A stretch of 63,565 nt of DNA, counting the filler, from Klebsormidium nitens (lineage: Eukaryota; Plantae; Klebsormidiophyceae), in the NCBI GenBank assembly GCA_000708835.1. It is 4 parts of 4 records of this genome, joined end to end, with 100 filler letters (N's around TTAATTAATTAA, not from the genome) between each part and the next. Parts side by side here need not be neighbours in the genome. Positions count along the whole stretch, not along the records: positions 38,323 to 51,855 come from DF238065.1; 3 more parts are not named here. One strand, 5' to 3'. Position 1 is the stretch's first letter; every line of letters starts with the position of its first letter. Below are positions 29,072 through 51,855 of this stretch, one piece after another. Position numbers and translations under genes: made by a program. The notes below the pieces were generated by a model, which saw only the letters and a list, made by a program, of their open reading frames with translations, was not told the origin of the DNA and made no database searches.

Positions 29072-29330
29072 TGACCACGTTGAGAACGTGGATGAGTACG
29101 GACCGAGAGGACCCAATATTACACAACTTGTGAGACCACCACTGGGCCGGACTATTCCGCGAAAGATGCCGCGCGGTGCCGGAGAGGGCCACACCCTGCC
29201 GTAGTGGGTCAATTTCGTGTTATACTTAATCACGTGAGCCTTAAACCCTCTGCTCTTTCCTGACCACATTGAGAACGTCTTTCGGACTCGGCCTGAGAGG
29301 ACTCGATACCACACAAACTTGCAAGACCCT
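29072..29330 (+). repeat. Direct repeat right of the nuclease gene, within a tandem unit of about 189 bp
   Basis: tgaccac(g/a)ttgagaacgt..gagaggac..acacaacttg..agacc at 29072 and 29261; the unit includes the copy of the 26937-27005 repeat. Confidence 0.8.
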
Positions 29331-29929: not shown

Positions 29930-30170
29930 ACACACCATGTATGTTCGGACGCCCTCCTGGGATGAGCCCAAGGAATGAGCTTTTGGTGTTTTCGGACGCT
30001 TCTGTGATCTTAGGTATCTATGATGAGCTTTCGGATGAGCTTTCGGACGCGCTTTCGGATGAGCTTTTGGATGAGCTTTCGGATGAGCTTTCGGGCGCTA
30101 TCCTCGGACGAGCTCCTGAAATGAGCTCCTGGGATGAGCTCTTGGTACTTTCGGACGCTTGGGTATAAGA
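29930..30170 (+). repeat. 12-bp GATGAGCTTTCG tandem repeat within a local duplication
   Basis: About six gatgagcttt(c/t)g units at 30022-30093, flanked by duplicated ctcctgggatgagc..ttttggt..ttcggacgct. Confidence 0.8.
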
Positions 30171-31639: not shown

Positions 31640-31763
31640 TGCAGAGGCGCTTGCGCAAAAACACAGAGGATTTAGAGAGTTTCCTTGAGGAGGCTAAACT
31701 TGCATCTCTCAACCTGATATAGTTTCTGAAAAGCGCGCGTTACCCGTGTACCTGTGCAGACTA
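31640..31763 (+). repeat. R-family repeat R2
   Basis: tgcagaggcgcttgcgcaaaaacacagaggatttagagagtttcct..ttgcatctctcaacctga..cccgtgtacctgtgcagac. Confidence 0.88.
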
Positions 31764-32509
31764 CACCAATTGGAATGATGTACATGTTGTCAGCCATGTG
31801 TGACGATTACGTCTGGTTAAGCCTAACCTCGTTCTCGTCAGGATTTCGTTGGCTGCTTGTTAGCGAAACGACAGCGGTTACGTCTTAACGGCGCGCTGTG
31901 AGACCGTTGATATACGGCGTTCCNNNNNNNNNNNNNNNNNNNNNNNNNNNNNNNNNNNNNNNNNNNNNNNNNNNNNNNNNNNNNNNNNNNNNNNNNNNNN
32001 NNNNNNNNNNNNNNNNNNNNNNNNNNNNNNNNNNNNNNNNNNNNNNNNNNNNNNNNNNNNNNNNNNNNNNNNNNNNNNNNNNNNNNNNNNNNNNNNNNNN
32101 NNNNNNNNNNNNNNNNNNNNNNNNNNNNNNNNNNNNNNNNNNNNNNNNNNNNNNNNNNNNNNNNNNNNNNNNNNNNNNNNNNNNNNNNNNNNNNNNNNNN
32201 NNNNNNNNNNNNNNNNNNNNNNNGCAAGTTCCCTAGAGGGGGCGAGTCTAGAGACTTCCCAAAATCTGAACAAGGAGCCTCTTCGTGAGTCCTAACTGTT
32301 CAGAAGAAATCAGAACTTGGGAAGAAGGCAAGAGAGCAACAATTTTTCTGAGAGGCGCTCTTGCTGAAGGTGAACCTAAGTTGGGCTGAAAAGCTGGGCA
32401 TGGATTCCGCACATGTCTAGCAGACGGGCAGCGTTGAAACCCGTCCAACCGTCACACCATGACTTTAAGATGCCATACCAATCATGAAAGTGGTATTTGT
32501 ATACACAAT

Positions 32510-32633
32510 TGCAGAGGCACATGCGCGGATACACGGAGGATTCAGAGAGTCTCCCTAGGGCGGCTGAAGCTGCATCTCTCAATTTGACATACTTTGTGAA
32601 AAACGCTCGTTATCCGTGTATCTGCGCGGGCCA
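32510..32633 (+). repeat. R-family repeat R3
   Basis: tgcagaggcacatgcgcggatacacggaggattcagagagtctccctaggg..tgcatctctcaa..aaaaacgctcgttatccgtgtatctgcgcgggcca. Confidence 0.95.
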
Positions 32634-32929
32634 AGTCAAGCGAGCTTTAGACCGGAGAAGCCCCTGCATCGGCCATACTAGCATCGAACGTAAGCTCAGC
32701 ACGTGCGTAAAGACACGTGCACGGTCTAAATTGCTTTCACATTGGTAATGGTACCACGCGACCGCGCGCGCTGTGGCGCTTCAGAACGTTGCCGCAGATT
32801 ATGGCAGTATAGATCGGACAAGCGTCAGCTCAATAACGACAACAACAACAACAACGTAGAAAGGCGCAAAGATAGAGCTTTAGAAGAGAAAGAAGAGAGA
32901 GGCGCAGCTGCTAACAAGAAGACGGCCTA

Positions 32930-33961
32930 ATGGCGGACTGGGACAACATTAGGGCTGCTCTTGCCCCCAGCTGCAACGCCGCTGTGCTAGACAAGGTGCT
33001 CAGTCAAGTGAAGCTCATCCTCCTAAACCTGCGGGGAGAAGGGGTGGCTGATGCTGCAGACTTACAGGCGCAGTACACGAGGATTCTTGCCCGGAGTCTG
33101 TCAAACTCGAGAAGAGCTAGAGGCCTCGTGGCACACTCGCTGCGGGAGAGGATAGAGGAACTGGTAAACGGAGGTTGGAGGGGGTTGATTGAGGCTTTAG
33201 TACTTCTTCACCAGCCTGACGACAACCTGCTGTTGCTTACCCAACAACTGAACTCATCATCTATCCTGGAACGTGAGCTAGAAGGGGTCTCCTTGGGGGC
33301 AGTTATGAGAGCACTGAACACAGCAAATAGGGGAGAAGGATGCGACATCATCAAGCTCCGAGCTAAAGAGATACAGCGGAGAGTAGATGCAAGAGTATCT
33401 GTCATGCTCCCCTACTGGGAGAAGAGCTGGAAGCTTTACAACTGGTCATCACTTTCAACGAATCAGGAGACCATCCGAGATCATTTGTACACGCGGTTCA
33501 ATGCAGTGCTAAGGCTCATCATCCCGCACGAGCGTTACTGGGAGAACCTCGTGGAGAAGTATGTGAGAGCCACGTTCCGCCTATCACAGTCAGCAAACGG
33601 ACCAATCATCACCTCAAAGCTATACCACACCGCTGACATGGAGCTGGTAGTTCCCAATGTTGAGAGCGGGCACCTGAGGGTTCTGTACGAGGTCTTAGTC
33701 GACAATGAGCGAAAGCTGATGTGGTGGTCCATCCCACGGTCTTTGACATTACAGCAAGTGCTTCCCATCCCAATTCAGAGAGGAGAAGAATCAGAGGTGC
33801 CACCAGAGCAGACCTCGATGTTCCAGAAAGCTTGCGCAAAGTGCGGGTCTGCTGCTACTTCAAAGTGCTCTAGGTGTGAGCTCTGTAGATATTGCAGTGC
33901 AGACTGTCAGAGAGAGGACTGGGCCAGACACAAGGAGTACTGCACATTGCATAGAAAGTAG
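32930..33961 (+). CDS. MYND-type zinc finger protein, intronless
   Basis: C-terminal CAKCGSAATSKCSRCELCRYCSADCQREDWARHKEYC. Confidence 0.9.
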   Translation: MADWDNIRAALAPSCNAAVLDKVLSQVKLILLNLRGEGVADAADLQAQYTRILARSLSNSRRARGLVAHSLRERIEELVNGGWRGLIEALVLLHQPDDNLLLLTQQLNSSSILERELEGVSLGAVMRALNTANRGEGCDIIKLRAKEIQRRVDARVSVMLPYWEKSWKLYNWSSLSTNQETIRDHLYTRFNAVLRLIIPHERYWENLVEKYVRATFRLSQSANGPIITSKLYHTADMELVVPNVESGHLRVLYEVLVDNERKLMWWSIPRSLTLQQVLPIPIQRGEESEVPPEQTSMFQKACAKCGSAATSKCSRCELCRYCSADCQREDWARHKEYCTLHRK

Positions 33962-34096
33962 GCAATTGAAGAAGCCCTCGGCAGCAAGCTAAAACAAGCA
34001 GGCAGCTGAACTGGTCCTGAAGCTAACCGAGATGTTATCACATATTATGACTACTAAGACCATACCACTCACGGAGGACATACATTCGTATTCGAT

Positions 34097-34220
34097 TGCA
34101 GAGGAGCTTGCGCGGATACACGGAGGATTCCAAGAGTCTCCTTAGGGCGGCTAAACTTGCATCTCTCAACCTGACATACTTTATGAAAAACGCTCGTTAT
34201 CCGTGTATCTGCGCGGGCCA
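34097..34220 (+). repeat. R-family repeat R4
   Basis: Same consensus; lies between two convergent gene ends. Confidence 0.95.
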
Positions 34221-34286
34221 ATCAAGATGCTACCGTTCGAGAATGTCCTTGACGGATGCTGACGTACATACAAAAATGGCTGCTAC

Positions 34287-35369
34287 TCAAGCAAGCTTCA
34301 GACCGAAAAAGGCCCTGCATCTTCTGTTATTTTGCATGACCTTGCAAGGTTCGTACCCTAACTTATGCATGACCACACCCACTGCCCTTGCAGAGGGAGC
34401 ACGCTGGCCCTCGTACATGATTGCAACGAGCCTCTCGAGGAAGGAGCTCGAGGCCAGCCTCTCAGTAGGATCCACAGTGCAATGCTCGGTAATAAATTGC
34501 TTGATCACGGCCTCGACAGCGGCCGTGCTTCGCGGATGCGGGGCCTGAGGCATCACTTCCTGATCCGGGGGTTCCTGTGCGGAGACGGGAGCATGCAGCC
34601 TGGGTTCGTCGGAGCTTCCCTGGACGTCCTGGCGGTCACGTGCGGAGGTCCTACTCCGCTTGCGAGGGACCTTTAGGCTCAGGGTGGCCATCCGGAACTC
34701 GTGGTCCAACTCGGCGATGCGTACATCAGCTTGGCGCTCAGCCACCCGCGCGTTTGCCTCGACCTCGGCCTGTCGAGTCTTCTCCTTTGCAAGCAAGACC
34801 TCTGTGCTGATGTACACGCCCGACTTCCTTCCAAGCGGAGGGTTCTCTTGCAAAACGATGGGTGGCTGCTGCCTGTTTGTAGTAAGCTCCAGGTAGGCGT
34901 CCCGGATTGCCTTGAAGAAAGCTCGAACTCGCTCGCCGGCCTCTGTCTGTGCCGCCATCGCAAACCTCTCAAAGGCATCTACAGTGAGATAGTACTTCTC
35001 TGGAGCTGGGCCCTTCCGTAATCCTTCTCCCTCCTGAGCGAGGAGGGAGTTAGTCGAGCCATGCTCAATCCGTGTGAAGTCCGTGTCTTCCACGGGGCGA
35101 GCCCTCAAAGCCCGGATGGCATTGTCTCTCCTGCCATACTGCAGCCAGGTATACGCGTCGTCGAAGTTGATTGGGTAGCGCTGGCCCTTGTCATCAAAAG
35201 CTTTCACAAAAACCTTCCCTAGCTCCTCCCAGCCCTCCAGCTGGCTCACGTCAATGGCCCGGACGGCTGGGTGTGCGAGCACGCGGTCGGCAAGAGCTAC
35301 CTCCATGTCAGCTGAGCAGTTGCCCTTCTCGGCCGGAACGGTCGCCCTAAGTGTTGACGCAGCCTCCAT
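34287..35369 (-). CDS. Viral antirepressor-like (MSV199/AntA-like) N-terminal DNA-binding domain, coiled coil, and D5/P4-primase-type C-terminal winged helix
   Basis: YPINFDDAYTWLQYGRRDNAIRAL..DF..YYLTVDAFERFAMAAQTEAGERVRAFF; C-terminal IKQFITEHC..SARAVGVVMHKLGY..RAFFGLKL. Confidence 0.7.
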   Translation of the reverse strand: MEAASTLRATVPAEKGNCSADMEVALADRVLAHPAVRAIDVSQLEGWEELGKVFVKAFDDKGQRYPINFDDAYTWLQYGRRDNAIRALRARPVEDTDFTRIEHGSTNSLLAQEGEGLRKGPAPEKYYLTVDAFERFAMAAQTEAGERVRAFFKAIRDAYLELTTNRQQPPIVLQENPPLGRKSGVYISTEVLLAKEKTRQAEVEANARVAERQADVRIAELDHEFRMATLSLKVPRKRSRTSARDRQDVQGSSDEPRLHAPVSAQEPPDQEVMPQAPHPRSTAAVEAVIKQFITEHCTVDPTERLASSSFLERLVAIMYEGQRAPSARAVGVVMHKLGYEPCKVMQNNRRCRAFFGLKLA

Positions 35370-35485
35370 CCCGGGCAGAAGTTACCACTCCTGGCCTGAA
35401 CTGTTGCCTTAAGTATCGATCCGTATGCGCAAGACAGTCAGCTGTTAGACGCCATACCACATATGTAAGTGGTTTTGTGTGCAAC

Positions 35486-35609
35486 CGCGGAGGCACATGC
35501 GTGGATACACGGAGAATTCAGAGAGTCTCCCTAGGAAGGCTAAACGTGCATCTCTCAACCTGAGGTACTTTTGGAAAAAGGCTCGTTATCCGTGTATCTG
35601 CGCAGGCCA
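35486..35609 (+). repeat. R-family repeat R5
   Basis: Same consensus; lies between two divergent gene starts. Confidence 0.95.
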
Positions 35610-35831
35610 CACGAAGTCGGTCAAGAGCTAACATACTGGTACTTAGGGCATCGGCATCCGACTAAGATGCAAGCTGGTGAAATATGTGGCCGAATGCGTT
35701 TGAAACGGGTGAAATTCTTCCAGGACCACCCGTAACGATGGCGAGTCAGCAGATTATCACCCCGTCCACTCTAAAGACGATATCCCAGGGGTTCGAAAGG
35801 AGCATGACGGACCGCTTGGGGTCCATATTCG

Positions 35832-37201
35832 TTGGACTGTTCCATAATAACGGCAACGAGTACCCGGTTTCCCTTTGAAGAAGCCTGGCAGTGGTTGGAG
35901 TACAGCACAAAAGGAAGCGCACTACGCCGGTTGGAAAAGTACACGGAAGGCGTAGACTTTAACATCAATGTTAAGAGAGACACGGGGGGAGGTCCGTCCC
36001 ACAGATACTTTCTCACGACGGATTGCTTCGAGGACCTGGCCATGAAGACAGAGACGGCCGTCGGTAACAGCATTCGCCGGTACTTCCGAGCAATCAGAAA
36101 TGCATACGTTGAGGCTCTACGGTCATTCAAAGCAGTCGAGTCACGCGAGAAGGCATTGGAGATGCTTCTAGACAAGCAAGGGTGCCTCTATCTTGCGTGT
36201 ATCAACGAAAGTGGAATGGAAAGCTGTACAAGTACGGTTGCAGCACCAACCTCCAGAAGCGGAACATAGCGCATCGCAATCACTTCAAGGACCCTTACAC
36301 TTACCGGCTGGAGTGGGCTTGGAAAGCGGATCGGCCAAAGGATGCAGAGGATTCCTTCAAAGAGGACCCTCTAATCAAAGAACTTCACCAGGATGTGGAG
36401 GTTGGAGGCACTGTGCATCGATAGATCATACACTTGCCGGAACGTGTGGACAAGGACACAGTCCTGGCAATTGCTGAAAGGGCTGCCCACAAGAGCCAAC
36501 ACACGATCCAACACCTCTATGTGGGTGGAGTGAGCAACAACGAGAAGTGCAAGGAGGTCTTACTGGAAAAGGAGAAGACCCGACAAGCCGAGATCAATGC
36601 CAAGGTGCGCTTGGCTGAGTTGGATTACGCTCTGAGGATGGAAGAGCTCAAGCTTTCAGCTCGAACGCAAGCAGGGCACGCAGCACCAGAGCCTCATGCA
36701 AGTCGTCCAGCAGCTCCCCTGCTGGACGGGTGGGATCATGAGGAAACGGGAACGGTCTCGGATGCCTGCAGCACTGCGATGGTTCTGTCCAACTGCCATG
36801 TGTCCACCACTGCGGAATGTACAGAGGAGATGCCAAGAGAGGGCTCTGTGACGCTGGGAGACACCACTGAAGGAAGGGAGGAGCAGGCGGATGCCGGTGA
36901 AGGTATTGAAGTAGCCCTCGAGCAGCAAGTCCAAGATGCTGCCCAATCGGGCGACAGCCAGGCAGCGGAGCTGGTCAAGCGGTTCGTCGAAGAGCATTGT
37001 GTAGTGGGGGCGTCGGAGAAGGTGACATCCAAGGAGTTCCGTGCACGCCTTCTGGCTACTTATGGTGAAAGCTACGGGCGTCTTCTCGGCCCAAGGCGTG
37101 TCGGTATGCTTATGCACGCAAATGGTTTCGAGGCTAGAGAGGTGCAGTGCGAGCTGAAGCGCTGTAGGGGCTTTGCGAGCATCTCCCTGAAGTCGTGCTA
37201 A
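35832..37201 (+). pseudogene. Paralog of 34287-35369 with an extra T5orf172/GIY-YIG-like domain; frameshift about 36210 and TAG at 36422-36424
   Basis: FPFEEAWQWLEYSTK..YFLTTDCFEDLAM..IRRYF; GCLYL..KLYKYGCSTNLQKR..AEDSFK; EVLLEKEKTRQAE shared with the paralog; same C-terminal wHTH (KRFVEEHC..RRVGMLM..RGF). Confidence 0.75.
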
Positions 37202-37269
37202 ATAGATGCGGCACTTGTCATCGGCCATGACTTCGAGATAACATGCCACCTACAAAGTACATATTCGAT

Positions 37270-37393
37270 TGCACAGGCGCATGCACGGATACACAGAGGA
37301 TTCAGAGAGTCTCCCTATGCGATCTAAACTTGCATCACTCAAGCTCACAGACTTTTTGAAAAACGCTCGTCATCCGCGCATCTGCGCAGGCCA
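37270..37393 (+). repeat. R-family repeat R6
   Basis: Same consensus; tandem with R7 at a 206-bp period. Confidence 0.92.
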
Positions 37394-37475
37394 TGCCAAT
37401 TGAGACGCTACACAAATTGTCAGCCACGACACTTGAAACCATACCAACCACGAAGTGCTTACATTCATATCTAAT

Positions 37476-37599
37476 TGTGCGGGCGCATGCGCGGATACAC
37501 AGAGAATTCAGAGAGTCTCCCTAGGGGAGTGAAACTTGCATCTCTCAACTTCAGAGACTTTTCGAAAAACGCTCGTCATCCTTACATCTGCGCAGACCA
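37476..37599 (+). repeat. R-family repeat R7
   Basis: Same consensus; last copy before the right inner inverted repeat. Confidence 0.92.
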
Positions 37600-37721
37600 C
37601 GCCAATCAGATGTTGCACATGTTATCAACAATGACTAGACCGCTCCTGCTACCCTTACCCCTAATAAGGCATGATATGTACGTCTGTGGGTTCTACTCCG
37701 TTGCACGTGGGTTCGTTTCTG

Positions 37722-37899
37722 CATACATACATAGTGCTCACTCATGCAAGTCTATGAGAAGTCCTACTATGCATGTTTACATTTTTTTCCAGAAAGAGAT
37801 TACATATATATGTCATTTGTAGATGGTCTTATAAAATGTATACTAAGTTACAGAATTCCCCCCCCATGGGGGAAAAAAGGAAGGTGGAAACACAGTACA
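37722..37899 (-). repeat. Right inner inverted repeat
   Basis: Inverted counterpart of 24796-24982. Confidence 0.85.
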
Positions 37900-38007
37900 A
37901 AGTAGTTTTAAGGTAGATTCAAGTGAGGACTATGTATGTATCTCTTCCATTCTTGAGACGAAACGCCTCCCTGAATGATCAACACACCTCTGCACTCTAA
38001 GCCTCTA

Positions 38008-38150
38008 ACCTAGCCCAAGAAATATTTCTCGAACTGCTCCTACTCAAGTCCCTGAGCCTCTGAACTAGCCCAAGAAACATCTCGCCTTGAAATGCTCATA
38101 CACAAGTCCCTAAGCCTCTGATCTAGCCCAAGAAACATCTGCTCATACCC
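38008..38150 (+). repeat. Subterminal tandem repeats of about 55 bp (caagtccctaagcctctg..ctagcccaagaaacat)
   Basis: Three copies. Inverted motif copies ggcttaggga(a/g)ttga at about 24158-24175 and 24257-24271, and ttgggctag at 23779. Confidence 0.75.
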
Positions 38151-38632
38151 AAATCCGTTGGCCTCAATAAACATTCCTCAACCAACGCTCGCATGCACCC
38201 GCATGTGAAGCGGCGCTGAACANNNNNNNNNNNNNNNNNNNNNNNNNNNNNNNNNNNNNNNNNNNNTTAATTAATTAANNNNNNNNNNNNNNNNNNNNNN
38301 NNNNNNNNNNNNNNNNNNNNNNCTTCTCAGTGAGGAGAATGAGGAAGATGAGAAACGAGCGCATATGCTTCCGCCCTTCCATTGCATACATTCAGGCTTT
38401 GCCGCCGGGGGCCTCTACCCCCTCGGTTTCATCATGCTCATCCGCCTCATTCTCTTCAGTGAGGAGGATGAGGAAGATGAGAAACGAGCGCATCAAACAT
38501 GTTTTCGGCTGCGTTCATGCGTCGCACGTTTGGCGAAAGGTTCGATTAGTGGCGTCTGATGCCTCATTGAGTAATCGCAAAGAGAGAACGTTTGCAATTG
38601 CTTTCATTTTTGTGTATTTGAAATATCTGTAC

Positions 38633-41600
38633 CTATGTCAATATCTCTCTGCGAAAGGCTTTTGAGCTCAGACCTCGCGCGCAGTTATTCAACTTCACCC
38701 GGGGCATCATGGGGCTGCTGGGACGGCTGCTCCAGCGGCTGCGTGTCGCCCCCCCATTCCAAGTTTCTGCGGCGATCGGCTCCGTGTCGTGTTGCTCTTG
38801 AGACCCCGACCGCGGGTCGCCGCTCTCCGCGTCACCCGGGGCATTATGGGGCTGCTGGGACGGCTGCTCCAGCGGCTGCGTGTCGCCCCCCCATTCCGAG
38901 GTTTCTGCGCCGATCGGCTCCGTGTCGTGCTGCGCTTGAGACCCCGACCGCGGGTCGCCGCTCTTCGCTTCACCCGGGGCATCCTGTGTCTGCTGGAACG
39001 GCTGCGTGAGGGGCTGGGTGTCGCCCCCCCATTCCGAGGTCTCTGCACCGATCGGTTCCGTGTCGTGTTGCGCTTGAGACCCCGCTTCACCCGGGGCATC
39101 CGGGGGCCGCTGCGTGCTGCCCCCCTCTGCAGCTTTGTCACCGCCCGGCGTCTCCTGGGCATCCCGGGGCTTCTCGAGCGGCTGCGCGTCGCCCCCCCAC
39201 TCAGAGGCGTCTCCGCCGATCGTCCCCGTTTTCGTTGCTTCAATTACTCTCTCGTCTGTTTGTGTAGCAACGGACAGCTTGCGACTCTCTTCTGGTGACG
39301 TGGCGGTCGTCTGCAAAAGTATTCAGGACGCGGACGATTAGGGGGACTGAAACGTAGCTTGGGGGCGTAGTACTTAAGGCATAACGGCAAACTCGAGTTG
39401 CGAATTTCCAAGCAATGGTTTCTCCTTGATGGATTTTCATTCTCTTTCATGGATCTACGCTTTGAAACATTTTTTCGAGTTGATACAGACAGGATATTCC
39501 TCACCGGTAGTCGTAGGGGGAAGACGAGGTCGTCTGGTGTTTTTGGCGTGCAGATGCCGGGGTTTAACGAAGTTGATTTCTCGACGCTCAGCTCGGGAGG
39601 TTTTATCTGCAAGATTTGGGTATCTGTCAGATACGCAGAGTGCATTCGTGAGATTTGGTAACTTGGCGCTTGCGACCTGGAAGATTTTTAGTAGAGTGTC
39701 GCTTACGCTAACGACTACAACGGTCACGCTGATTCTCACCTGGCGTTCAGTAGCTCCTGCTTCCTTTCCTCGTTTGCGGAGTGATTCTTCGGATTTTTTG
39801 AGTACTTCAATAGCCTGAATAGAGGGAGGGATTTTCTCTTAGGTACAGTGTCTTCCGTTTGAGAAACGCTTTGGAGTGCATTTGGTTGCAGATTGTCCTT
39901 TGGTCATTGATGCAATTCACCGAATATCATTTTGCGTTGAGTTGTATGATGAGGGATCGTTACGACTTACGGCTTCTGCGAAATCGGGGTTCATGTCCTC
40001 GAGCTCTCCCCAGGCCCGTTTTTTTTTGGTAGACGTTTGCGTAACCGCTTGAGAAACGGCAGCCCTTGCTTCGTACAGCAGACCTTCTGGTAGTCTCGTA
40101 AAGGGTCCTTTAAAATTCATCGCTGCAGAGCAGTTAGTTTGTTTAGCCTCAGTGTGGAAGATGATATGGTTTGTCATGTGTCTCGAAGCGAGCCGAAGAT
40201 GCAAGTTCATTGCCTTGTGCCTGATCTATTGGCTTGCAGCACTGGTCGTTGGCCTCACCTTGGCATACGTCATCGTGGCATTTTTGATAGAAGTGCCCTT
40301 GCTGTAGGTCCACGACCATGTACACTGCAGGAGAAGATCTTGTCAACAATTGGTCTCTTGTTTGAGAGAAACTCGTGCAATGGTGCGAGTGAGCGATAAC
40401 GAACCTCGAAGCTGCCCTAAGCCACGGTCGAGGTGGTATGAGACTAGAATTTGGTTGTGAGGCTCACTGTTGTTTTGTGTGTGGTGTCTATTGACATTGT
40501 AGCAGAACTTCGTGCCCTTGAACGAGTAGGACAGGAAGCCCTCGTTGATTATGATGCGTGAGGAGATTTTGGCGCCTGCGTGACCAACGGGCTTGCTTGG
40601 AACGAGAAGCGAATTCGCCAATTTTGGTTCTCTTTGCAAGGTCCATTGGACATCGACGATGAGGAGAAGAGGACCAGCGGTGAGCAGCATGCAAAGATTT
40701 TCGTGGACCCTTAGTATTTGGGCCGAACCTTGGGCCCTGAAGTTTTCTCGAACAAACGCTGTCAAGAAGTCCTCCATGCTCTTGATGAAGATTGACGGTT
40801 TGCTGTTTTCTGATTGAGCCGTTTTGACTGGTGCTGCTGGACCGTCTTCAGGTGAGGCGTTCTGCAGGATAGCAGATCAAGTTTGCGTTACCGTCTCAGG
40901 AGTCGATCTCAGGAGGGATCTTTCTATTCGTGCAATCCTGGAACCGATTTATGACCATTTCGAGCACTGCAGGTCTGAGTCACTGTTTCTCTGCTGAAGC
41001 CTGGATTGCGGATTACCTCTCGGTGATGAAGGGGAGGAAGCGGCGTACTGGAGAGTGGCACCAGAGACGCGAGGGACCAGGTAATCTGCTTCTTGATGTT
41101 CTGCAAGTAAGAGTCAAGAAGAATGGGATCAATGGAAAAGTTTTTTGCCTGCTGTAGACAGTTTGCACCAGTCTTATCACTTTGTTTAGTTGAGATCCAA
41201 CTAGCGTTCAGGTTCTAGTAGGTCTCATCTTGGCATATCTTACCTCCTCCTTGAAGAATCTGCACGTTGGGGTAAATGGGATATTTGGCCCCTGCTGCTT
41301 CGTCGAGAATATTGTCCTTAGATGACGCGTCTTTGTGTAGACCCCTTGGTCTATAACGAGAGCTCGCTCAGCCGCGTGTCGCTGATTCACAATTAGTCTC
41401 TTGCAGGCTTCGTCACCAGAATCGGCCCGCAGGTAAACTTCCGAGCAGACCTGAACGTTGAATGAATGCTTTCAGTCTGATCAGCCGGGTGGATTGAAGT
41501 GCACGGAATGAATCTTCGGGGTGTGCAGGTTGAATGGTTGAGCAAACGGTTTCCGGGTCGCAAATTGAACTGACCTTGTCCACGAAGTCCTTCATCTCTT

Positions 41601-42638
41601 CGTGTACATTTGAGAAGCAGCGTCCGAAGATCGGGACGATCAGGTGCCTGCTGAATTTTGCTGCACGGAACGAGATAGGGCGTTTCAGTTGATTATAGAT
41701 GAGGATTCTGTCCGTCAGCGGTTCTGTGGTTTTTCCAGATGTGCACGTTCAAAAAAAGGAGAATGGACTGCCGCGATTGTGAAAAACTTTCTTTTGTAAA
41801 GTTATCATGGCGCAAGATTGCTTACTTGAGTATGATGCATCCAGTTCAACAACTCTTTCTTTCCAGATGCCCGTTCCATAGGCCTCCCTGCACACGTCTT
41901 CTGTAACTGCCAGGATCGTGTCGACGAGGTCGTCTGCCGAGAGTCCAGGATTTTGATTCTTCATGTACTCCAAGTCATAGAAGAGGTTGGCGCGCCGGCC
42001 CTGTTTGATAGGACAGGGTTCAGGAACAGGTAGGAGCATTGATGAAGCTTTGGACGCCAACAAACGATGCTTGAAGGAAGCAACTTTGCTTTTAGCTGTA
42101 ATAGACGGGATCCGAGCTTGGAAACTCACCGTGCGGAAGATTTCGTATGTGTGCTGCCACTGGAGTTTGTTCGCGGCGAAGCTGCGTCAGCGCATTCACT
42201 GATTCTCGTTAGTTTTCGATTGACAGGACTTTGCTAAACCGTGTTGGTAATGGCAGCAGAATATGGATTACTTCGGATCAAGATCGTTGACAGATGTCGG
42301 CACAGAAAAATCTGATATATGGAACGACAGTATCAAACAATGAATGGAAGCAAACAACTCTAGGCTTACCTCTTCAAGAGAGCTTCGATCGTTACTGCAT
42401 AGTAGTTGTAGGTGCCATATTCAGGATCTTGTCTGGCCAGGAATATGAGACTTTCCGCATCGAAGTACGTGTCAGCATAACGGTACATGTCGTTTAGAGT
42501 TTTAAAGTGTTGCATAACAAGCCGTTCTTTGAGGAGGTCAAATCCTGGCATGTCTGATATTGGCTGGTCGCGATTCTTGCGCATCCCCTCGCGAATGCTC
42601 GGACGGACGCATGACATCTTCGATCGATTATGCTCCAT
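38633..42638 (-). CDS. PRIMPOL: Eukaryote-type PrimPol (CCDC111-like primase-polymerase), multi-exon, with a repetitive C-terminal tail
   Basis: Motifs in order on the minus strand: QHFKTLNDMYRY..NYYAVT, LFYDLEYMKNQNPG (DxE), KFSRHLI (SxH), VIDQGVYTKTRHLR, KFCYNVNRHHTQNN + VYMVVDLQQGHFYQKCHDDVC (UL52-type Zn finger). Integrity of all exons not verified. Confidence 0.88.
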
Positions 42639-42949
42639 GACTGCTTTCCCAATTGCATATGGCGTCCAAATAGAAAGATCGAGGTGGCAGTTATTTGCAT
42701 CTGCATACTTTGTCCCTGAGGGTTGCTCCGCGGTTGGCGCCCTGACTCTTTTCCATGGACGTGGTACTAAGGAAGATTCTACTTTGAACTACAGAGGCTC
42801 TTCCTTTTAAATGACGAATCAGATCTTCATGTAACTCAATGGAAGAGGCGTGCTCAATCTTATTGCTCTTCATGCAAGAGACCAGCTCCCTCGGTCCCTG
42901 GCTGCGCCTCTGCAATTTATGGCTTTCTTAATGTATATGTACCATACGA

Positions 42950-43130
42950 CTTTAGGCCGTGCGTGCGCCGCGCGCGACCTCACCTGCCGCCGCCCGGCCG
43001 CGGTTCCGAACCACCGTACGCGCGCGCGGTACCGAACCTTTATGCGCGGCGCGCGAAACCACCCTTGGGTTCGGGCTCAAACCTCCAGGGTTTGGTGGGC
43101 CAATAGAATTCAAATTTGATGGATCGCGAG
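42950..43130. promoter_or_regulatory. CpG-dense, CGCG-rich segment between the divergent PrimPol and helicase genes (bidirectional promoter or origin candidate)
   Basis: cgcgcgcg runs and repeated CGAACC/GAAACC words in the divergent intergenic region. Confidence 0.35.
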
Positions 43131-43577
43131 CCTAGCCAATGAATGCTGCATGCTGCGCTGAGCTTGAGCGACTTTCTGACTGCTCTCTGCGGACTCTGAG
43201 CTGTCTCAGATACTCTGATAACCTGCGTAAGTCACACCGTGATACCCATAAAAGTGATTCTTTGGGACCTGCGTTCAGCTCACAACTTGTTCGCAGGTCG
43301 ATCGGTTTCAAAGTGCGCCTCTTTTCATTAAGCGTAGGCTCTTTCTTCTGCCGTTTTTTACTTTGAGCTGATGGTCTAGGTAATCAGTTTGCATAGGTTC
43401 CTTATCTTCTTTCAGCCATCCTCACGGTTTCCTCAGCTTGAGGGCCGTAGTGATTCCAGCTGCACGTGTTGAAGAGTTGATCTCTTTAGCAGGCGGTTTT
43501 GCTATTTGTGAGCGATTGGCTTCACAGCACCAGTGGTAGCAGCTAGCAGGTTTCCTATCGGTAGCGAAGTTGACAAG

Positions 43578-46500
43578 ATGCCTTCGAAACGGTCAAGCTT
43601 TGGCGATCAGGGGTGCAACCCCAATCAATGTCGCGCTGTGTGCTTGATCGTCGACGACGAGAACGCCAAGTCGTCGTTCCCTCCCGAAGTCTTGAAAATG
43701 CTTCACAGAATGGGGAAGAGAATTGGTGTGAGCGCCTGGATGCTGATGGTCCCGATGACCTCATGCGCTTCCTACTTCCTGGGACCGAATGCGCTTGTGG
43801 AGGTTGATGGCGTCGACTGGAAGAGCAACCTGATCCACTGGGGCTTTTGCGTCGGTCCCAGTGGCTTTGGGAAATCGCAAGCGTACCAGAAAATCAGCAA
43901 GAACATCGACGTGGTCGAGCGAATCATCAATGACGAGATCATGGAGCACATTCTTAAGGATCTGGATCGACAGGTTTACAAAGAAGGTTCTTCCGAGTTC
44001 GAAAAGCTCATGTCCGAGATCAAGTTTCTGAAAGTCAAGATGGACGGCGCGGTGAGTGGACTTTTGAGCCCCGCTCACAACGCTCTCATGGAATGCTTTC
44101 GATCTCATGCAAGGCAGTCACTGCATCGTGATGTTTCTCTGCAGATCGTTCGTTCAAGACCTGATTGTTTCACTTGAACATTATTACTATTCATCAGTCA
44201 TTCATTGCGGTATACAAATTGGTCGCTAAATAAGTTGCATCGTTGCGTTTCTCCGCATTTTCGTTTAGGACAGCTGACTCAATGCTTTCTTTGACTAGTC
44301 TGATCATTCATCAATCACATTCATTGCGGTACACATTCAATAGTTGAATTGCTCTAACATTCTAGGAGCCAGGGATCGCGTGCAGTCATCTGTGCAGTGA
44401 CGTCATCGCCGTCAGCATTCGACTATATAATTCCGCAAGTTCGTGTTGCTGAAGGCATGCTTTTGAAACGTACTGAACATTTGACTTTGAAGATGACAAT
44501 TCAGAGGCGGGATACAAAGCTTGCATTTCTCATCAAAATTATGAGGTGCACGTAGATCGAGGTATGCCACGTCATTCCTTCTGAGTTTTGACTAGTTCTT
44601 CAGCAAGAAAGCACTGCAAAGTAGCTTGATCCCGTTATGTCTATCTACCATACGTCTCCTTAACAAAACGTGCTGTTTCTGCAGGTTAACTTCGAACGCC
44701 TGTTCCAGATGCTCCTCGCTGCTCGTGATCATTCGGGAATGCTCCTCTTCGAATAAGCTCATCAATTCTTCGAGATGCTCGACGCCTACAAGAAGGGCAA
44801 CTCAGACCGGGTTAGAGCTCTGCAGCTGAAGGGAGGAAGCGCGTGGACCCGTGAGCTTGTCGACGATAAGTGTGAGAGCAAGACGTGCGAGTACACGCAC
44901 GTTTGCATCGGCGGCTTCACGCAGCCTGAGCCCCTGCACAGAGAGATTAGCAAGACACCGAACGACGGGCTCATGAACCGGTACCAGACGGCGTTCCCCC
45001 CGCCAGAGTTCCCTGACTTCAGTGAGTTGCTCGAGTGACAGTTTCGAATCCGACCTGTTTGACGATCAAACAATGTGTCGAATGTTTAAACTCCCAAGAT
45101 GTTTTCTCAAACTTGTCTTTGGTATCGTTGCTTTGATCCATCGGAAAGATTCCAAAATCCTTCGTAAGTGCGAAAATCTGAGCATGTTCGAAAATTCGTG
45201 CAGGCCAGCTATGCATCGGTTCTGATGAGCAACAAGTAGTCGACGAAGACAACGACCTGATGCAGAAGGTGCGATTAGAAGCTCGTATCAACGTATCAGT
45301 GCCTCGCTCTCGTCACGTGGCTTGTTTGTCAACAAAAGTATAGAACTCGTTTGCCCTATCTCCTTTGATGCGAATGACTGCCTGCAGCTGAAAGGATCCG
45401 TGTCGTGATGTGCAGCTGATGTACCGATTGTACTGGCTGACGCACAGCTTGGACGAGGACAAGGGCAAGACCATCTTCAAGCTGACAGGAGCTGCTCGTG
45501 ACGTGTTTGGCCAGGGGTTTGACAGCATTCAGGCAGTTCTTCGGCAGCTGTATGACAAAGACTTGCTGCACAAGGCTGGTAAGCGCGACTTCCTACTCCA
45601 AAGTAGGAGGTAATGTAACCTAGCGTCTGAAAAAATCCCCGTGAGCAGCCTACGTTCCACTTCGAATGGCTTCTGTGTCCATTTTCGAATCTCGATAGGG
45701 TAAAGCGGACAGGGAGAATGCACTTCTGGGAGCGGACGCGCAGGATCTCAGAAAGCGAAAGAAAACAAAGCTTCAAGCATACACTTTTTGTGCAGGGATC
45801 ATCTCGAAAACCAAGGGCGAGGTGCTCCAGATCTCCGCAATCTTCAGGGCGATGAGCCTGGTTCTTGAGCCGTCTTACCTGACCCAAGGGGAGCAGCCCG
45901 AGTCCCTCCTGATCACCGAAGACGACGTCCGGCAGGCGTGGAACTTCGTCAACCTTACAACAAGGCAGCGCATCGAGTTTGAGAATGACAAGGAGGTGAT
46001 CAAGGTCTGCAGCAAGGTCCTGGGGTGGAAGCCGCTCGGTCTCCGAGTCGAAGAAGATGAAGAGGAGGACGACGATGACGAAGAAGATGACAACACCAAC
46101 ATGGACGCACTGGTAAGCGTACACCAAGCTTGGGGCTTTCTTCCTCTCTGATGGTTTCTACTTCGCGAAAGGCAGCTACAGAGGAACCCGTTTTGTCGCA
46201 GTTTCATTTGCTTTTCGTGCTCTAAAAGCCGATCTGCGACTTTCTAGGAAGAAGCCTTAATCGAGCGCGCTTTTTGCAGAGCCCCCTCGACCGAACCGCA
46301 AAGAGGCTCTTCAAAACATTCCGGGACGAGACGATCAGCCGCATCGAGGTGTCCAGAAAGAGAACCTTTGGCAACAACAACCAGATCATGGACGTGCTCA
46401 ACTACATCTCTTCAAAGGACGACAACGGGGTGCACTACTTCGGGTCGGTGGAGGAGACGGTCAAAGGGCAGATCAGCAAATTGAAGCAAGAGGTCTTCAG

Positions 46501-46612
46501 CAAGCTCATCCCGAAGTCCGAGGAGGAGAACATCGACCTGATCAACAATCTGAGCCGCATTGGAATGACCTTGGACGCGTTTCTGCCATCACGCGCCCGG
46601 AAGAACATGTAA
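43578..46612 (+). pseudogene. DUF3987/YfjI-type AAA+ helicase-like protein, multi-exon, with a nonsense codon in Walker B
   Basis: VGPSGFGKSQA (Walker A); MLLFE*AHQFF (TAA 44754-44756 where Glu is expected); IGGFTQP, DGLMNRY, ISKTKGEVLQISAI, ITEDDVRQAW. Introns e.g. 44052-44684. Confidence 0.78.
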
Positions 46613-46660
46613 GTCGCGAAAGCTCTGGAAGATCCGTAGCCACTTTTCCGTCTGACGAAT

Positions 46661-49600
46661 TCAAGTGCGACTCGTCTGAAGTTCCTTGTAAATCATCTCG
46701 CGTGAAGAAGCTTGGACTGAATCGGTCCTACCGAATCTAATCGCTTCTTTTGGGATCCTGTCCAGGAAAAAAGGCTCTCCTAACAACTCCGACAACTCGG
46801 ACCCGGGCAACACTTCTTCCCATGCTTCAGACGGCCAAGAGTTGGAAATGGAGGAGGCGTAGAGAAGTAGATTCGTTACCTGACAGGGCTGCTTAGTTGC
46901 TGTAGACGTAGCTTCTTGGAGTCGGTTCTGGGTCGCTGCATGGGCCGCCTCGAGAGCCCGGAGCTGCCTCTGCTGCTCTGCATCTCGTCGTAGATGGTCG
47001 AGCTTCGTGATCACCAGGATCATGAAGCGAAACCTATGCTCGGACATGTACCTGAGGCAAAGTAGACAGAGCTTTGTAGATGTTGAAGCAGAGAAGACAG
47101 AGCCTCCTAAGTGCTGCCAGGCTGCGATGTGATCTCGACTTTGCTGAAACGATTCTATGTAGGCTTCGAAGCATTTGGACTACAGTCGACTGTGCTTAAC
47201 ATATGTTTCTAGCCAGAGATTGTACGATGAACATTGTCAGGTTGCTGAGGACCATTGACTGTCGACGAGTTCTCTTACCTGAGCGATGTTCTGAATTGGC
47301 CCCACCACTTGAACCTCTGTTCACACACCGACATGTTTGCAGTTTCGAGTTCTGGATGCTTGTACGGGTTCGTGTTCGCTGCGCACCACCGCCCCACATG
47401 GTTCTTCTTGAAGTGAAACTTGTCGACTGCAGAGGGCACAGGGAAGCTGATGTCAGTACTGCACTGCATAATGAATATACTGTGGGCGCAAACTGAGATT
47501 AAGTATACTAGTCTGGGATTGGTGAAGAGTGGGGCGCACTGGAAATGTATGCAATCGCGTAAAAACGTGTCCCGCACAAGCTGTCTTTGCGTACAGAAAA
47601 GACAGTATTGCAGCCGGAGTTGGTGTCCGCGCATCTTGTGATTACGAGTTCATCCTGTGTGACGCCTGTTCATGCTTGACAGAAGCCCGCGCGCTGCCTT
47701 CTACAAGCAGCGTCTCTCTCAGGGGGGTTCTAAACAGGGCCATTTCGCCCCCCCCCCCGAAGGTTCACGGAGGAAAACGCCCGTTCTGCGTCGCGGCAAG
47801 TTCGAACTTGAGAGCAAACGTAATGGAGGTGCCGTCTGCGAACGAGAAAAAGCCTTACCGACTTTCTTCGTGTCTTCGTGAAACTCGCGGGTTTTGTCGC
47901 TCATCGCAGTTCGCCCCCCGCTTGCTGCAAACCGTGCCCAGTGGCACATGTCGTCCATGCCTATGAACTCGGGCAGGCGCACATGCGCAAACAGGAGCAT
48001 CATGTAGTGGTGCACCTGCAATCAGGAGGAAAGACGAAAGGTATCACCTGGTGGAAGGGGGGGTCAAGCGTATCATCGGCTGACTGCGAATCTAAGATCG
48101 TACGGACGTCCAAAACCTGAGAACTAGGCACAGCGGCTACGGATGTCACGCCAGGAGGACACGAAGAGGGGCCGCCCGGAAAAAGGGGCTGAAAAGCTTC
48201 TCGGGACGCTCCTCGTTTTAATCAGCCGTTTATACGTCTGGACACGGAGCTCGGCGTTGAAGTGAGCACGAAGGAGCTCGATTCTAGGACTTATGTTTTG
48301 GTAGGAACGACAGAGGGAACATTACGTTACTCACCATCGTAGTGGACTCCGAAAGGATCAACTCCAGGGGGGGGAACATGTAGCCGCACGCCCAGAAGGC
48401 GACCAGCGTGCCGGCTGTCACGCCGCGTCCGTCCGAGCTCGTGCGCGGGGTGCAGGCTGTCAGCTTGGTCTTGCGGGGCGGCTTCTCGGCATCCGATTCC
48501 GGTGCGGGATCTGGTAGCTGGTCCTCCCGGTCGCGCGTGTAGAAGTCCCCTGCGGCGTAGTGTTTGTAGAACATCAGAGCCGCAAGCTGCGGCGCCACTT
48601 CAGAGCAAACGGTCGGCTCAAATCAATGCAGAAGCGTCGCATCGGAAAGAAAGACATGCTGCCCCAGAAAGGGAAGTTCAACTTCACGGCCCCTGAGGCT
48701 GACGTTGCTGCTGTGCATGTTCCAGATGCGATAAACCCTGCATTCTTGAAGAGCTTCGATGCTGGATGGAGAACGGTGCTTCACCTTGGGGCTGCGAGCG
48801 CAGGTACTCGTCCAAGAGGCCCCTGCCGAAGACAGTCACGTTCTCCTCAGGCTCCCACGTGTTCTCAGCGGCCGGGCAGCCCTTCCACTTGACCAAGTAG
48901 ATCGGTACCTATAGAGAGAGTGGGATAAAGAGTATCTAAAGCACGCTGATCCTTGCAAGAAAGAATGCTCCGGTCCAGTCTTTGTGCTTGAAATTAGGCC
49001 TTCCAGATCCAATAACATGCAACGTTTGAGCAACACGATCATCCTCGGGCCTTTGAGTGCGCAGACCCTAAAACCTTGCGTGCACGATTAGGCAGGCCCT
49101 GGGAGAACTTGGTGAGGAGCTGAAGACATGGCAACGCAGCTCGTTCTTCAAGTTACTGGCAGGAACCCTAAACATTGAGCGGTTGATTTGTCCAAGTGCA
49201 GACGTTTATTTGGACTCTGCTTGCTGAGAAGGAGGGGAACATCAGAGCGCTCTCTGAACCTGGCATGGCGGTGGCACCAAGTTCTGCATGCAAGTGGGTT
49301 CTGAATTCCTACGATAAGGGAAACATAGCTTACCCCATTTTTTAGCATGCTCATCTCTATTCGTTCAGCCTCGTACAGCGAGTCATCCTGCTCCAGCAGC
49401 TGCCTGGTCCTGCGCGTCCGTAGAGAAACTGGGCCAGCGTCCAGATCCCATTTCTCAGCGGATGCAGCGGAACCCTGGAGCCCTGACCCCCCCCCGCCTG
49501 AAGCCCCACCGTCCTCTTCGTCGCCCCCCCCTTCGTCTTCTGGCTCTTCCTCCTCCTCGTCGTACTCGCCGTCACTGTCGAGATCTCGTAGATCGATTTC

Positions 49601-51318
49601 TTCCACATCGCCCGCCGCAGGCTCATCAATCCGACTCTCCCCTTCTCCTCCCCGCACTCCTTCCGGATTCTCTGGCCGGCTTTCCGCACCGCCCTGCACT
49701 TCCGCAGTTCCAGCTGGCACTCCTGCATGATGCAGGCGACAGCGCTTCTTGTTTTTCAGGGGGGTTCTGGGGCAACCCTTCACAACCCGACCGATTGCAG
49801 TCTCGAAAAGCTCTGAATCCTTCTCTGCGCAGCAAGCTCGAAACACTTTGGCATTGCCGTCAAAGTGGCAGTACCTCCCGCAGAGCTCATTCTCACACTT
49901 CTTGCTGTGCTCGAGTGCCTCATCACGCAGGTGACACCAGAAAGGATCGTTGAGACTGCAGAGGACGCTGTCGATGGGCTCTCGCAAATCTATTGTGCCT
50001 AGCAAGGATGGGCAATGCTTCTGGCAGAACCGCACAGCCCAGAAGTGCAAATATGCATGCTCAAAGCGCTCCCTGTTCAAACTCCCTCTGAGCGACCGCC
50101 TCCGCCGCAGCCGCTGGAGAGCTGCCCCAGGCTCTTCCGAGAAGCGATCCAGGCCAAAGGACGCATTGTGGGCATGAACAGCAGAGACAAAGCTTGCGTG
50201 CATGTAATACCTGCAGAAATGCAAGGGCAAAGCCCGAGATCAGCAGACTGGCCAGGAGACGGATATGTGCGTGCATGCAGGTCGAACGCAATCTCCCTGG
50301 AGTAAGGCATTCTGCACAGACCCACCATCCTGCCATGTTCCTTATCAGAACGGATGACCTGAGACCTGCGACCCAACTGCCTTTTTTGTTGTTTCGACGA
50401 TGTTCAGAGACACGAGATTTGATTGTGCACCTGAGAACAATGTCGCAGAAGCTAGAGCATAGTTTATTGAGCAAGCCAGAATAAACTTCATGTCCTGTTA
50501 AGAGCAATCGCAACTAGATCAGCATGGAATATACAATGCCGCGGCAATGCTGAGATGAATGTAAGACAGACTCGGCAGGCTAAGAAGCATTCAGCAATCT
50601 ACTTGGGGAGAAGCACTTACAGATTGTGGTCGTGGTGTCGGAGAAGCTGCTTGCTGATGACCGTCTCTCCAGACAGCTCTAGCCAGTCGCTATTGTCGTG
50701 CGCAGCAGCGTACGGCCGCCGTGCCTGCGAGGCTGGTGGGCAGAATTAGCTGACAGAGAAGATCGCCTTGCACCCAGGACAGAACTTCTCTTGCACGAGC
50801 CCTTTGCCAGGCGGGCCGTCGTGAGGAAAGAAGAATGGCCGTCTGGGCTTTGCCTCAAGTACCCACTCGAGCTGCTCGGAACACAGAAAGCACCTTGTTG
50901 GCTTCGGGAAAGCAACGAAGAGCAGGGACTCCCTCCGTGCAATCTCCTCAACTGATGGGCGTCTTACGCCCGGAAGAAAAGACAGATCTGCTGAAGCACA
51001 CCTCAGTTTGTCAATGACGTTCTTCACAACCACCCTGTCGACGTGGCTGCTTGGCGACAGGGTGGTGTTCACGATAGAAGCGATGAGCTCTGCCCGATGA
51101 GGAAAGGACTGAGGGAAGAGCTTCAGGCAGTCTAAGAGCAGGACAAAGCTCATTAGGCACAGGGGGGCTGCGAGGTTGTCGATCCTGCCGGCTGCTTCCT
51201 CTGCCGGGTCCTCATTTGGCCTCTTCTGCTTCTTAGAAGACATGTTCACTGCATGCAGAGCAACTGGGGGGACCGGGGGGGGGTGGCTATCGTGAAAGAC
51301 GCTGCTACCCAACCTCAA
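46661..51318 (-). mobile_element. KDZ (Kyakuja-like) transposase gene with CxC5 and CxC6 clusters and an internal chromodomain; multi-exon; in-frame TAA at 50746-50748
   Basis: PTRCFLCSEQL..FCPGC (CxC5); HSKKCENELC..DGNAKVFRACC..GCPRTP..CRLH (CxC6-like); YLVKWKGCPAAENTWEPEENV (chromo); TAGTLVAFWACG..ELILSES, IGMDDMCH, VDKFHFKKNH..C..NP..NMSVCEQRFKW (KDZ core). Confidence 0.85.
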
Positions 51319-51465
51319 CCACCATTGTTCTTCTCTTGGTTGGTATACTTTGACCTTTCTCTTCAGGGCTGCGCTCTTAGCAGCTGTACATGCAAAGCAA
51401 CTGGGGGGACCGGGGGGGGGTGGCTATCGTGAAAGACGCTGCGAATCAACCTAAACCACCATTGG
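51250..51465. repeat. Tandem duplication of about 135 bp at the 5' end of the KDZ gene
   Basis: catgca.agcaactggggggaccgggggggg(g)tggctatcgtgaaagacgctgc..caacct.aaccaccatt twice. Confidence 0.85.
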
Positions 51466-51558
51466 CATTGCTCTCCGGCCTGCCCCTGAAGGACGCCATC
51501 TCTCTCCTCCTTTCCTTCAACTTCAACTTTACCTCTGAAAGCTGATGCAAGATGGGGA

Positions 51559-51855
51559 ATGAGTGGAATGTGGCGGATGAAGGGGGTGAAACCCGGGTAT
51601 AGGGACCCCCCCGCCCGGGCATGAGTGGAATGAGGCGGATGAAGGGGGTGAAACCCGGGTATAGGGACCCTCCCGCCCGGGCATGAGTGAAATGAGGCGG
51701 ATGAACACGATGAAACCGGGGTATAGGGGGGGACCCGGGCATGAGCATAATGAGGCGGATGAAGGGGGTGAAACGGGGGTCAAGGGACCCCCGCCCGGGC
51801 ATGAGTGGAATGAGGCGGATGAAGGGGGTGAAACCCGGGTATAGGGACCCCCCCG
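51559..51855. repeat. Minisatellite of about 60 bp (5 units, running into the linker)
   Basis: atgagtggaatgaggcggatgaagggggtgaaacccgggtatagggaccccccgcccgggc units starting at 51559, 51621, 51683, 51741 and 51801. Confidence 0.95.

Follow-up and report, generated by a model that had tools for sequence, protein, structure and literature searches.

The eukaryotic transposons known to bring their own DNA synthesis do so with the family-B polymerase of Polintons, the rolling-circle nuclease of Helitrons or, in Teratorn, an entire herpesvirus. PrimPol is an enzyme of low processivity, and its eukaryotic repriming architecture is known for short, error-prone tracts.

Among transposons of the KDZ (Kyakuja-Dileera-Zisupton) type, a Chlamydomonas Zisupton of 31.7 kb has been described (PMC9977147), and the cargo of the giant algal elements is often reported to be without known use (PMC12477816). 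A bacterial DUF3987 protein is described as a 5'-3' helicase, which binds the adjoining PrimPol and promotes strand displacement (PMC11724360).

We analysed a 63.5-kb stretch of Klebsormidium nitens DNA (the window), in which positions 38323-51855, lying between N spacers, form a contig of 13.5 kb, here called contig C. The other contigs of the window hold virus-like genes.

Genes and ends of contig C

Three spliced genes fill contig C (Table 1): one encodes a PrimPol, one a predicted helicase of the DUF3987 type and one a chromodomain transposase that is KDZ-like. The first-pass annotation had placed these on the minus, plus and minus strands, respectively, and had seen introns in all three, one nonsense codon each in the helicase and the transposase, and a minisatellite after the latter. 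Our gene models confirm the layout, with the KDZ label given by motifs, as well as the introns and both stop codons, and the 62-bp array is real at 51555-51855. GT and AG were found within 4 nt at all 23 intron positions checked in the three genes. Both stop codons are also present, with 0 differences, in contigs of read run X1, which rules out assembly error as their origin, where X1 may itself be the source sample of the assembly.

Table 1 Features of contig C (positions along the window)
Feature	Position	Strand	Remarks
Left end repeat array	38323..38500	.	units of about 129 bp with internal hairpin; cut by contig end
Divergent PrimPol-family primase-polymerase gene	38633..42617	-	12 exons, open frame; start codon inferred
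138-bp tandem repeats	38693..39229	-	encode low-complexity C-terminal tail of PrimPol; no end repeat
Head-to-head spacer, PrimPol/helicase	42618..43577	.	intergenic
DUF3987 (MCM-related, superfamily 6) helicase	43578..46862	+	7 exons, about 593 codons
Nonsense codon TAA	44754..44756	+	in helicase Walker B; second acidic residue there in paralog P0004
KDZ-like transposase	46661..51243	-	7 exons, about 844 codons if last exon unspliced; from six-frame reading and splice sites/phases
Chromodomain exon of transposase	48785..48908	-	PF00385, E 1.3e-10
Nonsense codon TAA	50746..50748	-	in transposase exon 1
Two 76-nt direct repeats, 137 nt apart	51252..51464	.	upstream of transposase start
Right end repeat array	51546..51855	.	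five 62-bp units; cut by contig end

The PrimPol exons, as modelled, are free of stop codons and keep the DxE, SxH and third acidic motifs as well as a C-H-C-C zinc finger of the UL52 type, which together place the product in the PrimPol (AEP) family. The annotated protein P0001 matches the Pfam Herpes_UL52 zinc finger (E 2.5e-9), and, against a profile derived from 72 further PrimPols, 7 of 8 exon-bearing ORFs fall in order over positions 39-455. No Pfam match to a PriCT domain was found in the contig C genes scanned, and two structure predictions, with mean pLDDT of 41.0 and 41.6, were too poor for a structure search. The spacer between PrimPol and helicase is likely a shared promoter; its GC-rich part has a palindromic look but folds no better than shuffles (z -1.04), and its segment 43073-43108 is common to one helicase-paralog contig.

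The helicase gene matches DUF3987 (PF13148) with E 9e-16 and a score of 58 bits, where the cut-off is 27, and has an Atlas score of 0.97 for this domain. Walker A is encoded in exon 1, Walker B is unbroken in paralog P0004, and the exon-4 acceptor, re-read by eye, lies at 45415. The helicase alignment retrieved 0 loci from metagenome and viral contigs, as did two transposase exons from the viral contigs, and a sequence search of the PDB gave no match for the helicase or for one transposase exon.

The transposase reads, in order, as two cysteine clusters, an acidic linker, the chromodomain and a core with candidate D, D, H and E residues; these residues, read by eye, agree with what we take to be the KDZ consensus. 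No single transposase exon matches the Pfam KDZ or CxC models at E cut-offs from 0.1 to 10, and the top Atlas match for the CxC cluster scores only 0.76, while the two cysteine clusters are visible by eye. From its motifs the protein is likely a cut-and-paste transposase and a candidate member of the KDZ type.

Both ends of the contig break inside repeat arrays, which carry inverted subterminal repeats. At the left, a contig of run X3 jumps back from 38422 to 38323, indicating further tandem units. The left array carries the motif of the right-end repeat in inverted orientation: a left-end 31-mer matches 5 of 5 units of the right array on the opposite strand with 3-8 mismatches and, with as many as 9 mismatches allowed, has no other match in the 63.5 kb. 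None of 300 shuffles gave better than 8 mismatches. The inverted match is short (31-40 nt), and the arrays enclose all three genes. A target-site duplication of 7-8 bp is reported for KDZ transposons (PMC12730594); contig C ends inside its arrays and shows neither termini nor such a duplication.

In a bisulfite-like run (X6), C→T changes within the PrimPol gene were found at 11 of 11 CHH sites, 4 of 4 CCG sites and 1 of 11 CAG/CTG sites, counts that rest on rows absent among those listed. CHG methylation is described as a mark of silent transposons in K. nitens (PMC5890265). The PrimPol gene likely carries methylation of this transposon type, and the contig C copy is likely silenced by it.

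PrimPol ancestry and copies elsewhere

The housekeeping PRIMPOL ortholog of the host is a different protein, P0014, which shares about 36% identity with the contig C PrimPol and clusters with sequences from Spirogloea, a fern, a lycophyte, yew and tea (support 99/97). The paralogs P0001, P0002 and P0006 form a clade of their own (100/100), whose stem measures 1.81 changes per column, and their monophyly with P0014 was rejected (p-AU 0.0049), placement and AU test both being model-dependent with a stem of this length. The trees were built from 149 rows, without the fragment P0015, and then from 31 rows picked after viewing the first tree. A housekeeping identity for the contig C gene, which the first-pass annotation had named as a ground against its proposal if single-copy and in conserved synteny, is rejected by the separate P0014, by the three paralogs named above and by the AU test. 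Judged from sequence, the gene is a non-housekeeping member of a long-branch family with at least three paralogs. In the paralog contigs, 19 of the 30 listed differences fall at third codon positions (p 0.0007), which indicates that the PrimPol paralogs are under purifying selection at the sequence level.

PrimPol alignments retrieved 0 loci from the viral contigs and 5 from metagenomes. These 5 are only distantly related (23-31% identity), and no match to helicase or transposase below E 0.1 accompanies any of them.

All three genes of contig C belong to multi-copy families, with diverged copies of each. Helicase and PrimPol are alike in copy number: beyond the contig C copies, run X1 yielded 3 contigs for the helicase and at least 2 for the PrimPol, at single-copy depth. 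Copy number is low, at about 4. Summed contig depth over the transposase is 30-50, against 16.9 for a single copy. In one diverged X1 contig (depth 18.3), helicase exons are followed by the final two exons of the transposase (joints 45879->47001 and 47053->47273); with the summed depth, this indicates dispersed copies, as expected of a KDZ transposon.

The co-occurrence of all three genes at several loci had been suggested at first pass as a check. Helicase and transposase are joined in 1 further contig, and PrimPol and helicase at 0 of 7 joints in diverged contigs. The paralog contigs are 1.2-4.3 kb long and end near the spacer. Annotated PrimPol paralogs lie on scaffolds 1116, 1441 and 695 and helicase paralogs on 1116, 188 and 1281, with 1 of 3 in common. 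On the 160-kb scaffold that holds the helicase with intact Walker B, no close PrimPol of 284-907 aa was found.

A proposed partnership with the TIR element elsewhere in the window (segment B) finds no support. The two share no DNA at E<=1, and the transposase exons have no match below E 0.04 in the window outside contig C.

A proposed transposon that would prime its own copying

We favour the reading that contig C represents the greater part of a single large DNA transposon of the KDZ type, whose own primase and helicase would prime its copying, with host polymerases synthesising most of the DNA; we give this reading a probability of about 45%. The transposase would bind the end arrays and cut at termini just beyond the contig, its chromodomain directing it to marked chromatin. 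Unwinding the element and loading PrimPol would be the work of the DUF3987 protein, and the primers laid by PrimPol would allow the element to be copied, or the donor site to be restored, during transposition. The contig C copy is unable to move by itself; its PrimPol could act in trans.

A bolder version, in which a KDZ transposase, a phage-type DUF3987 helicase and a recruited PrimPol amount to an own primosome, so that self-primed copying replaces plain cut-and-paste in a new class of replicative eukaryotic transposon, seems doubtful to us. This combination was not found described in the literature searched; Repbase, the original KDZ description (Iyer et al. 2014) and bioRxiv supplements lay beyond that search and may list one.

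It is equally doubtful that helicase and transposase alone make up the true element, with PrimPol as captured cargo, or a separately spreading neighbour, that has no role in transposition. The helicase-transposase link is the only one seen in a second copy, the PrimPol and helicase paralogs share so few scaffolds, and algal KDZ elements are described as carrying accessory genes (PMC12477816). However, PrimPol sits inside the inverted arrays, head to head with the helicase, its paralogs show the purifying selection described above, DUF3987 proteins are reported typically to pair with primases (PMC4889955), and a whole copy would not fit on the paralog scaffolds of 5.9 and 8.6 kb.

Full self-synthesis, in which the excised element replicates extrachromosomally by its own PrimPol and helicase alone and reinserts, in the manner of a Polinton with another replicase, is improbable. 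For bacterial mobile elements, AEP plus DUF3987 has been put forward as the machinery of replication (PMC11724360), the end arrays could act as origins, and the catalytic motifs of PrimPol are all intact, yet the enzyme retains the eukaryotic repriming architecture, the copy number is low, and contig C has no gene for a family-B polymerase (no match among the 25 ORFs scanned), a capsid or a single-strand binding protein. The first-pass proposal of a new self-synthesizing class is supported in part, by the non-housekeeping PrimPol, the multi-copy genes, the second copy that links helicase to transposase and the enclosing inverted end repeats. The term itself, in the Polinton or casposon sense, is overstated, because there is no processive or family-B polymerase and PrimPol is of low processivity; self-priming with host polymerases is the likelier of the two.

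Less probable again is that the primase-helicase pair serves excision or donor-site repair and not copying. IEE, the insertion sequence excision enhancer and a PrimPol-helicase, is reported to raise insertion sequence excision in a transposase-dependent manner (10.1101/2023.06.07.543989), but the elements on which IEE acts do not encode it, and it has been proposed to cause abortive transposition. We regard chance neighbours, that is, a host PrimPol duplicate or giant-virus remnant beside unrelated repeats, as very improbable: repeats do gather on small scaffolds, and virus-like genes are near at hand in the window, but the PrimPol is neither the housekeeping gene nor sister to P0014, the genes are rich in introns, five scans of viral contigs gave 0 loci for the primase, the helicase and two of the transposase exons, and the contig ends carry inverted repeats.

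If the preferred reading, a KDZ element with its own primase-helicase pair, is true, it would be a step towards own DNA synthesis, would give one testable function to the mostly unexplained giant KDZ cargo, and would mean that a selfish element has made the DNA-repair enzyme PrimPol its own. It would also be a caution that counts of PrimPol copies in algal genomes take in mobile paralogs.

Comparison with known systems

KDZ transposons, including the giant algal and Cryptococcus elements, are among the closest systems described: they resemble contig C in exceeding 10 kb, in the N-terminal cysteine clusters, discerned by eye in contig C, that precede the transposase core, and in carrying extra genes and an often pseudogenised transposase (PMC11343200, PMC12477816). 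Their cargo is TET/JBP or unknown genes, whereas in contig C it is a primase and a helicase, and the transposase of contig C holds an internal chromodomain.

In the bacterial and phage AEP and DUF3987 replication modules (AgaPP/AgaPH), mobile elements likewise carry the genes for a PrimPol-type primase and a DUF3987 helicase next to each other (PMC11724360, PMC4889955), but the genes of contig C are spliced and eukaryotic, its primase belongs to the eukaryotic PrimPol family without a PriCT match, and a transposase-like protein takes the place of an integrase as mobiliser. IEE also links PrimPol and helicase activity to transposition (10.1101/2023.06.07.543989); it is bacterial, a single fused protein, and acts in trans on insertion sequences.

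The housekeeping PRIMPOL of eukaryotes is colinear with the contig C PrimPol and has the same motifs and zinc finger, whereas the latter belongs to a separate, long-branch and multi-copy clade and bears a repeat tail. Polintons/Mavericks and casposons, like contig C, combine genes for DNA synthesis and integration in one inverted-ended element, but they do so with a family-B polymerase and a retroviral-type integrase or Cas1 (PMC6431247, PMC4779613), in place of which contig C has a primase, a helicase and a KDZ-like transposase.

The three genes of contig C

Contig C (38323-51855), third of the four N-separated contigs of the window, is an entire small scaffold (13,533 nt) of a charophyte alga, its annotated products carrying the name Klebsormidium nitens. 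It was modelled by reading all frames, with tblastn of stored proteins and splice sites and phases checked by coordinates. The PrimPol, helicase and transposase-like genes described in the first-pass annotation were all recovered by frame reading, tblastn and splice checks, together with DUF3987 and chromodomain matches. The PrimPol gene comprises 12 exons in an open frame, and 7 of 8 exon-bearing ORFs fall in order on a profile built from 72 other PrimPols. Its public model, P0001, lacks the first exon and that of the third catalytic motif, both present in the DNA; the paralog P0002 matches the missing motif exon at 71% (tblastn). The final tail repeat is one base short, so that the PrimPol frame changes towards the C-terminus, well away from the catalytic domains.

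The seven-exon helicase gene has a DUF3987 match of 58 bits, and its Walker B is interrupted by a stop where the paralog P0004, itself altered at the final Walker A residue, has two glutamates. The third gene, also of seven exons, combines a chromodomain with two cysteine clusters and an acidic linker, and the motifs of its core are similar to the KDZ consensus. Single exons gave no match to KDZ or CxC models, and the Atlas lead reaches only 0.76; the gene is likely a KDZ transposase, the profile search having covered single exons. X1 contigs that agree with the window letter for letter contain both the helicase stop and the transposase stop, X1 being a sequencing run that is possibly the source sample of contig C.

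Elsewhere in the window, contig A holds a primase-like ORF recognised by eye (no Pfam match) and, after it, a helicase with a frameshift and a match to Herpes_ori_bp (E 8e-10); together they apparently form a second, virus-like primase-helicase module. Contig B carries virus-like cargo (dCMP deaminase, patatin, MYND finger and AntA/KilA-like ORFs); the 11 long ORFs scanned include no transposase.

Coordinates of features in the window
Feature	Position	Strand	Observation
Apparent primase-helicase module, contig A	14055-18424	+	long, apparently intronless ORFs
Contig B	21014-38222		short terminal inverted repeat
Left-type repeat in fused contigs	38323-38351		
Final 138-bp repeat of PrimPol tail	38633-38760		one base short (137-nt spacing)
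PrimPol gene region in X6	39429-42355		
Last helicase exon and possible last transposase exon	46661-46862	opposite	overlap
Possible further transposase intron	from ~46880		
Right-hand side of fused contigs	51401 onward		

Origin and likely methylation of the PrimPol gene

We rejected housekeeping PRIMPOL as the identity of the contig C gene: in the trees P0014, which like P0006 is annotated as K. nitens, branches with Spirogloea, a fern, a lycophyte, yew and tea and follows the species order, and the contig C family stands apart. In a tree of 31 rows picked from the 149-row tree, that family (P0001, P0002 and P0006) is a clade of its own with a very long stem and an unsettled sister, and the AU test rejects its monophyly with P0014 (p-AU 0.0049), a value to be read with caution given the long branches. 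A search with P0002 against 1.84 billion representatives returned P0001 (63%), P0006 (50%), a 76% fragment and then ordinary PrimPols, mostly at 30-44%. Third codon positions hold 19 of 30 differences in the PrimPol paralog contigs, among the best-supported 40 rows. Two trebouxiophyte proteins fall outside the main chlorophyte clade, within a second divergent PrimPol clade (P0038, P0047, P0103, P0111 and P0022; 98/93) that may represent a further lineage, mobile or paralogous.

In run X6, C>T and G>A changes predominate, as in bisulfite data. Among the rows listed for the PrimPol gene (three single contigs), T stands at 11/11 CHH and 4/4 CCG sites, at 1/11 CAG/CTG and at 5/10 CG, unconverted sites being deduced from absence among those rows. 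The pattern suggests CWG specificity, with CAG/CTG protected and CCG and CHH converted, and, read from the absent rows, suggests that the gene carries CHG-type methylation. Excerpts of PMC5890265 describe CHG methylation as marking silent transposons in K. nitens.

Linkage at other loci and the ends of the probable element

Beyond the contig C copies, run X1 contains helicase sequence on three more contigs (3,991, 4,275 and 3,150 nt) and PrimPol sequence on at least two more, which overlap (3,125 and 2,464 nt). All have roughly single-copy depth, and the pieces listed are ~80-86% alike. In the X1 contig of depth 18.3, taken to be the 3,991-nt record, helicase exons run on into the last two transposase exons (among the 15 joints listed of 44), and the convergent pair is therefore present at a second locus. 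Outside contig C, co-occurrence was seen for helicase and transposase in one diverged contig, and for PrimPol and helicase in none (0/7 joints in the diverged contigs, where helicase contigs stop near the spacer). Annotated PrimPol and helicase paralogs have only one of three scaffolds in common, and two of these paralog scaffolds (5,944 and 8,644 nt) are similar in size to the two halves of contig C. The 160-kb scaffold gave no close PrimPol within the lengths searched, an argument against a three-gene unit of fixed composition. The pieces in environmental runs X5 and X7 are short, of low depth and mostly 94-99% identical; those listed belong to helicase and transposase (X5) or primase and transposase (X7), and they show presence elsewhere and not linkage. 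The nearest Atlas helicase cluster is 94% eukaryotic, with rotifers as its most frequent source, and phage clusters come next.

The right-hand array noted in the first pass stands, and we add a left one, a 129-bp spaced repeat running on past the contig end. On the opposite strand, each of the five right-end units contains a match to a 31-mer of this repeat (3, 7, 7, 7 and 8 mismatches), and the window has no other match to it at ≤9 mismatches; the best of 300 shuffled queries reached 8. Contigs in X1 (depths 40.4 and 8.7) and X6 fuse left-type repeat to right-hand sequence with the same 11 letters between; with a matched side of only 21-25 nt, these might perhaps be internally deleted, possibly non-autonomous derivatives.

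Proposed mechanism and comparison with known elements

DUF3987 proteins are MCM-related, usual neighbours of primases (PMC4889955, in excerpt). For one of them, 5'-3' helicase activity has been shown, as well as binding to its PrimPol, which can then copy through duplex DNA (PMC11724360, in excerpt). The simplest reading, we infer, would be a transposon-borne primosome: the transposase would cut at the element ends, the helicase would open the element, PrimPol would prime and host polymerases would extend. Alternatively, the genes might serve excision or donor repair, in the manner of bacterial IEE, or might be mere cargo. Full self-synthesis by the element is less likely, because eukaryotic PrimPol makes short, error-prone tracts and contig C has no family-B polymerase. 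The earlier interpretation survives in part: the PrimPol is non-housekeeping, Polinton-type self-synthesis becomes less likely, and the proposed partnership with the segment B element finds no support, the two contigs having no common DNA.

Polinton-type elements have a family-B polymerase, whose absence from contig C sets the element there apart from them. None of the literature searched, a scope short of Repbase and some KDZ papers, describes a KDZ element that carries primase or DUF3987, and the portion of PMC6431247 consulted lists none; a self-priming replicative transposon class seems unlikely, at perhaps one chance in four. Cryptococcus, Ectocarpus and Chlamydomonas are reported to have giant KDZ elements that carry additional genes (excerpts of PMC11343200, PMC12477816 and PMC9977147), and TET/JBP cargo is described in fungal KDZ elements (PMC12730594, in excerpt). 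The contig C element, a likely KDZ member, probably works like such a giant KDZ transposon with an added replication module.
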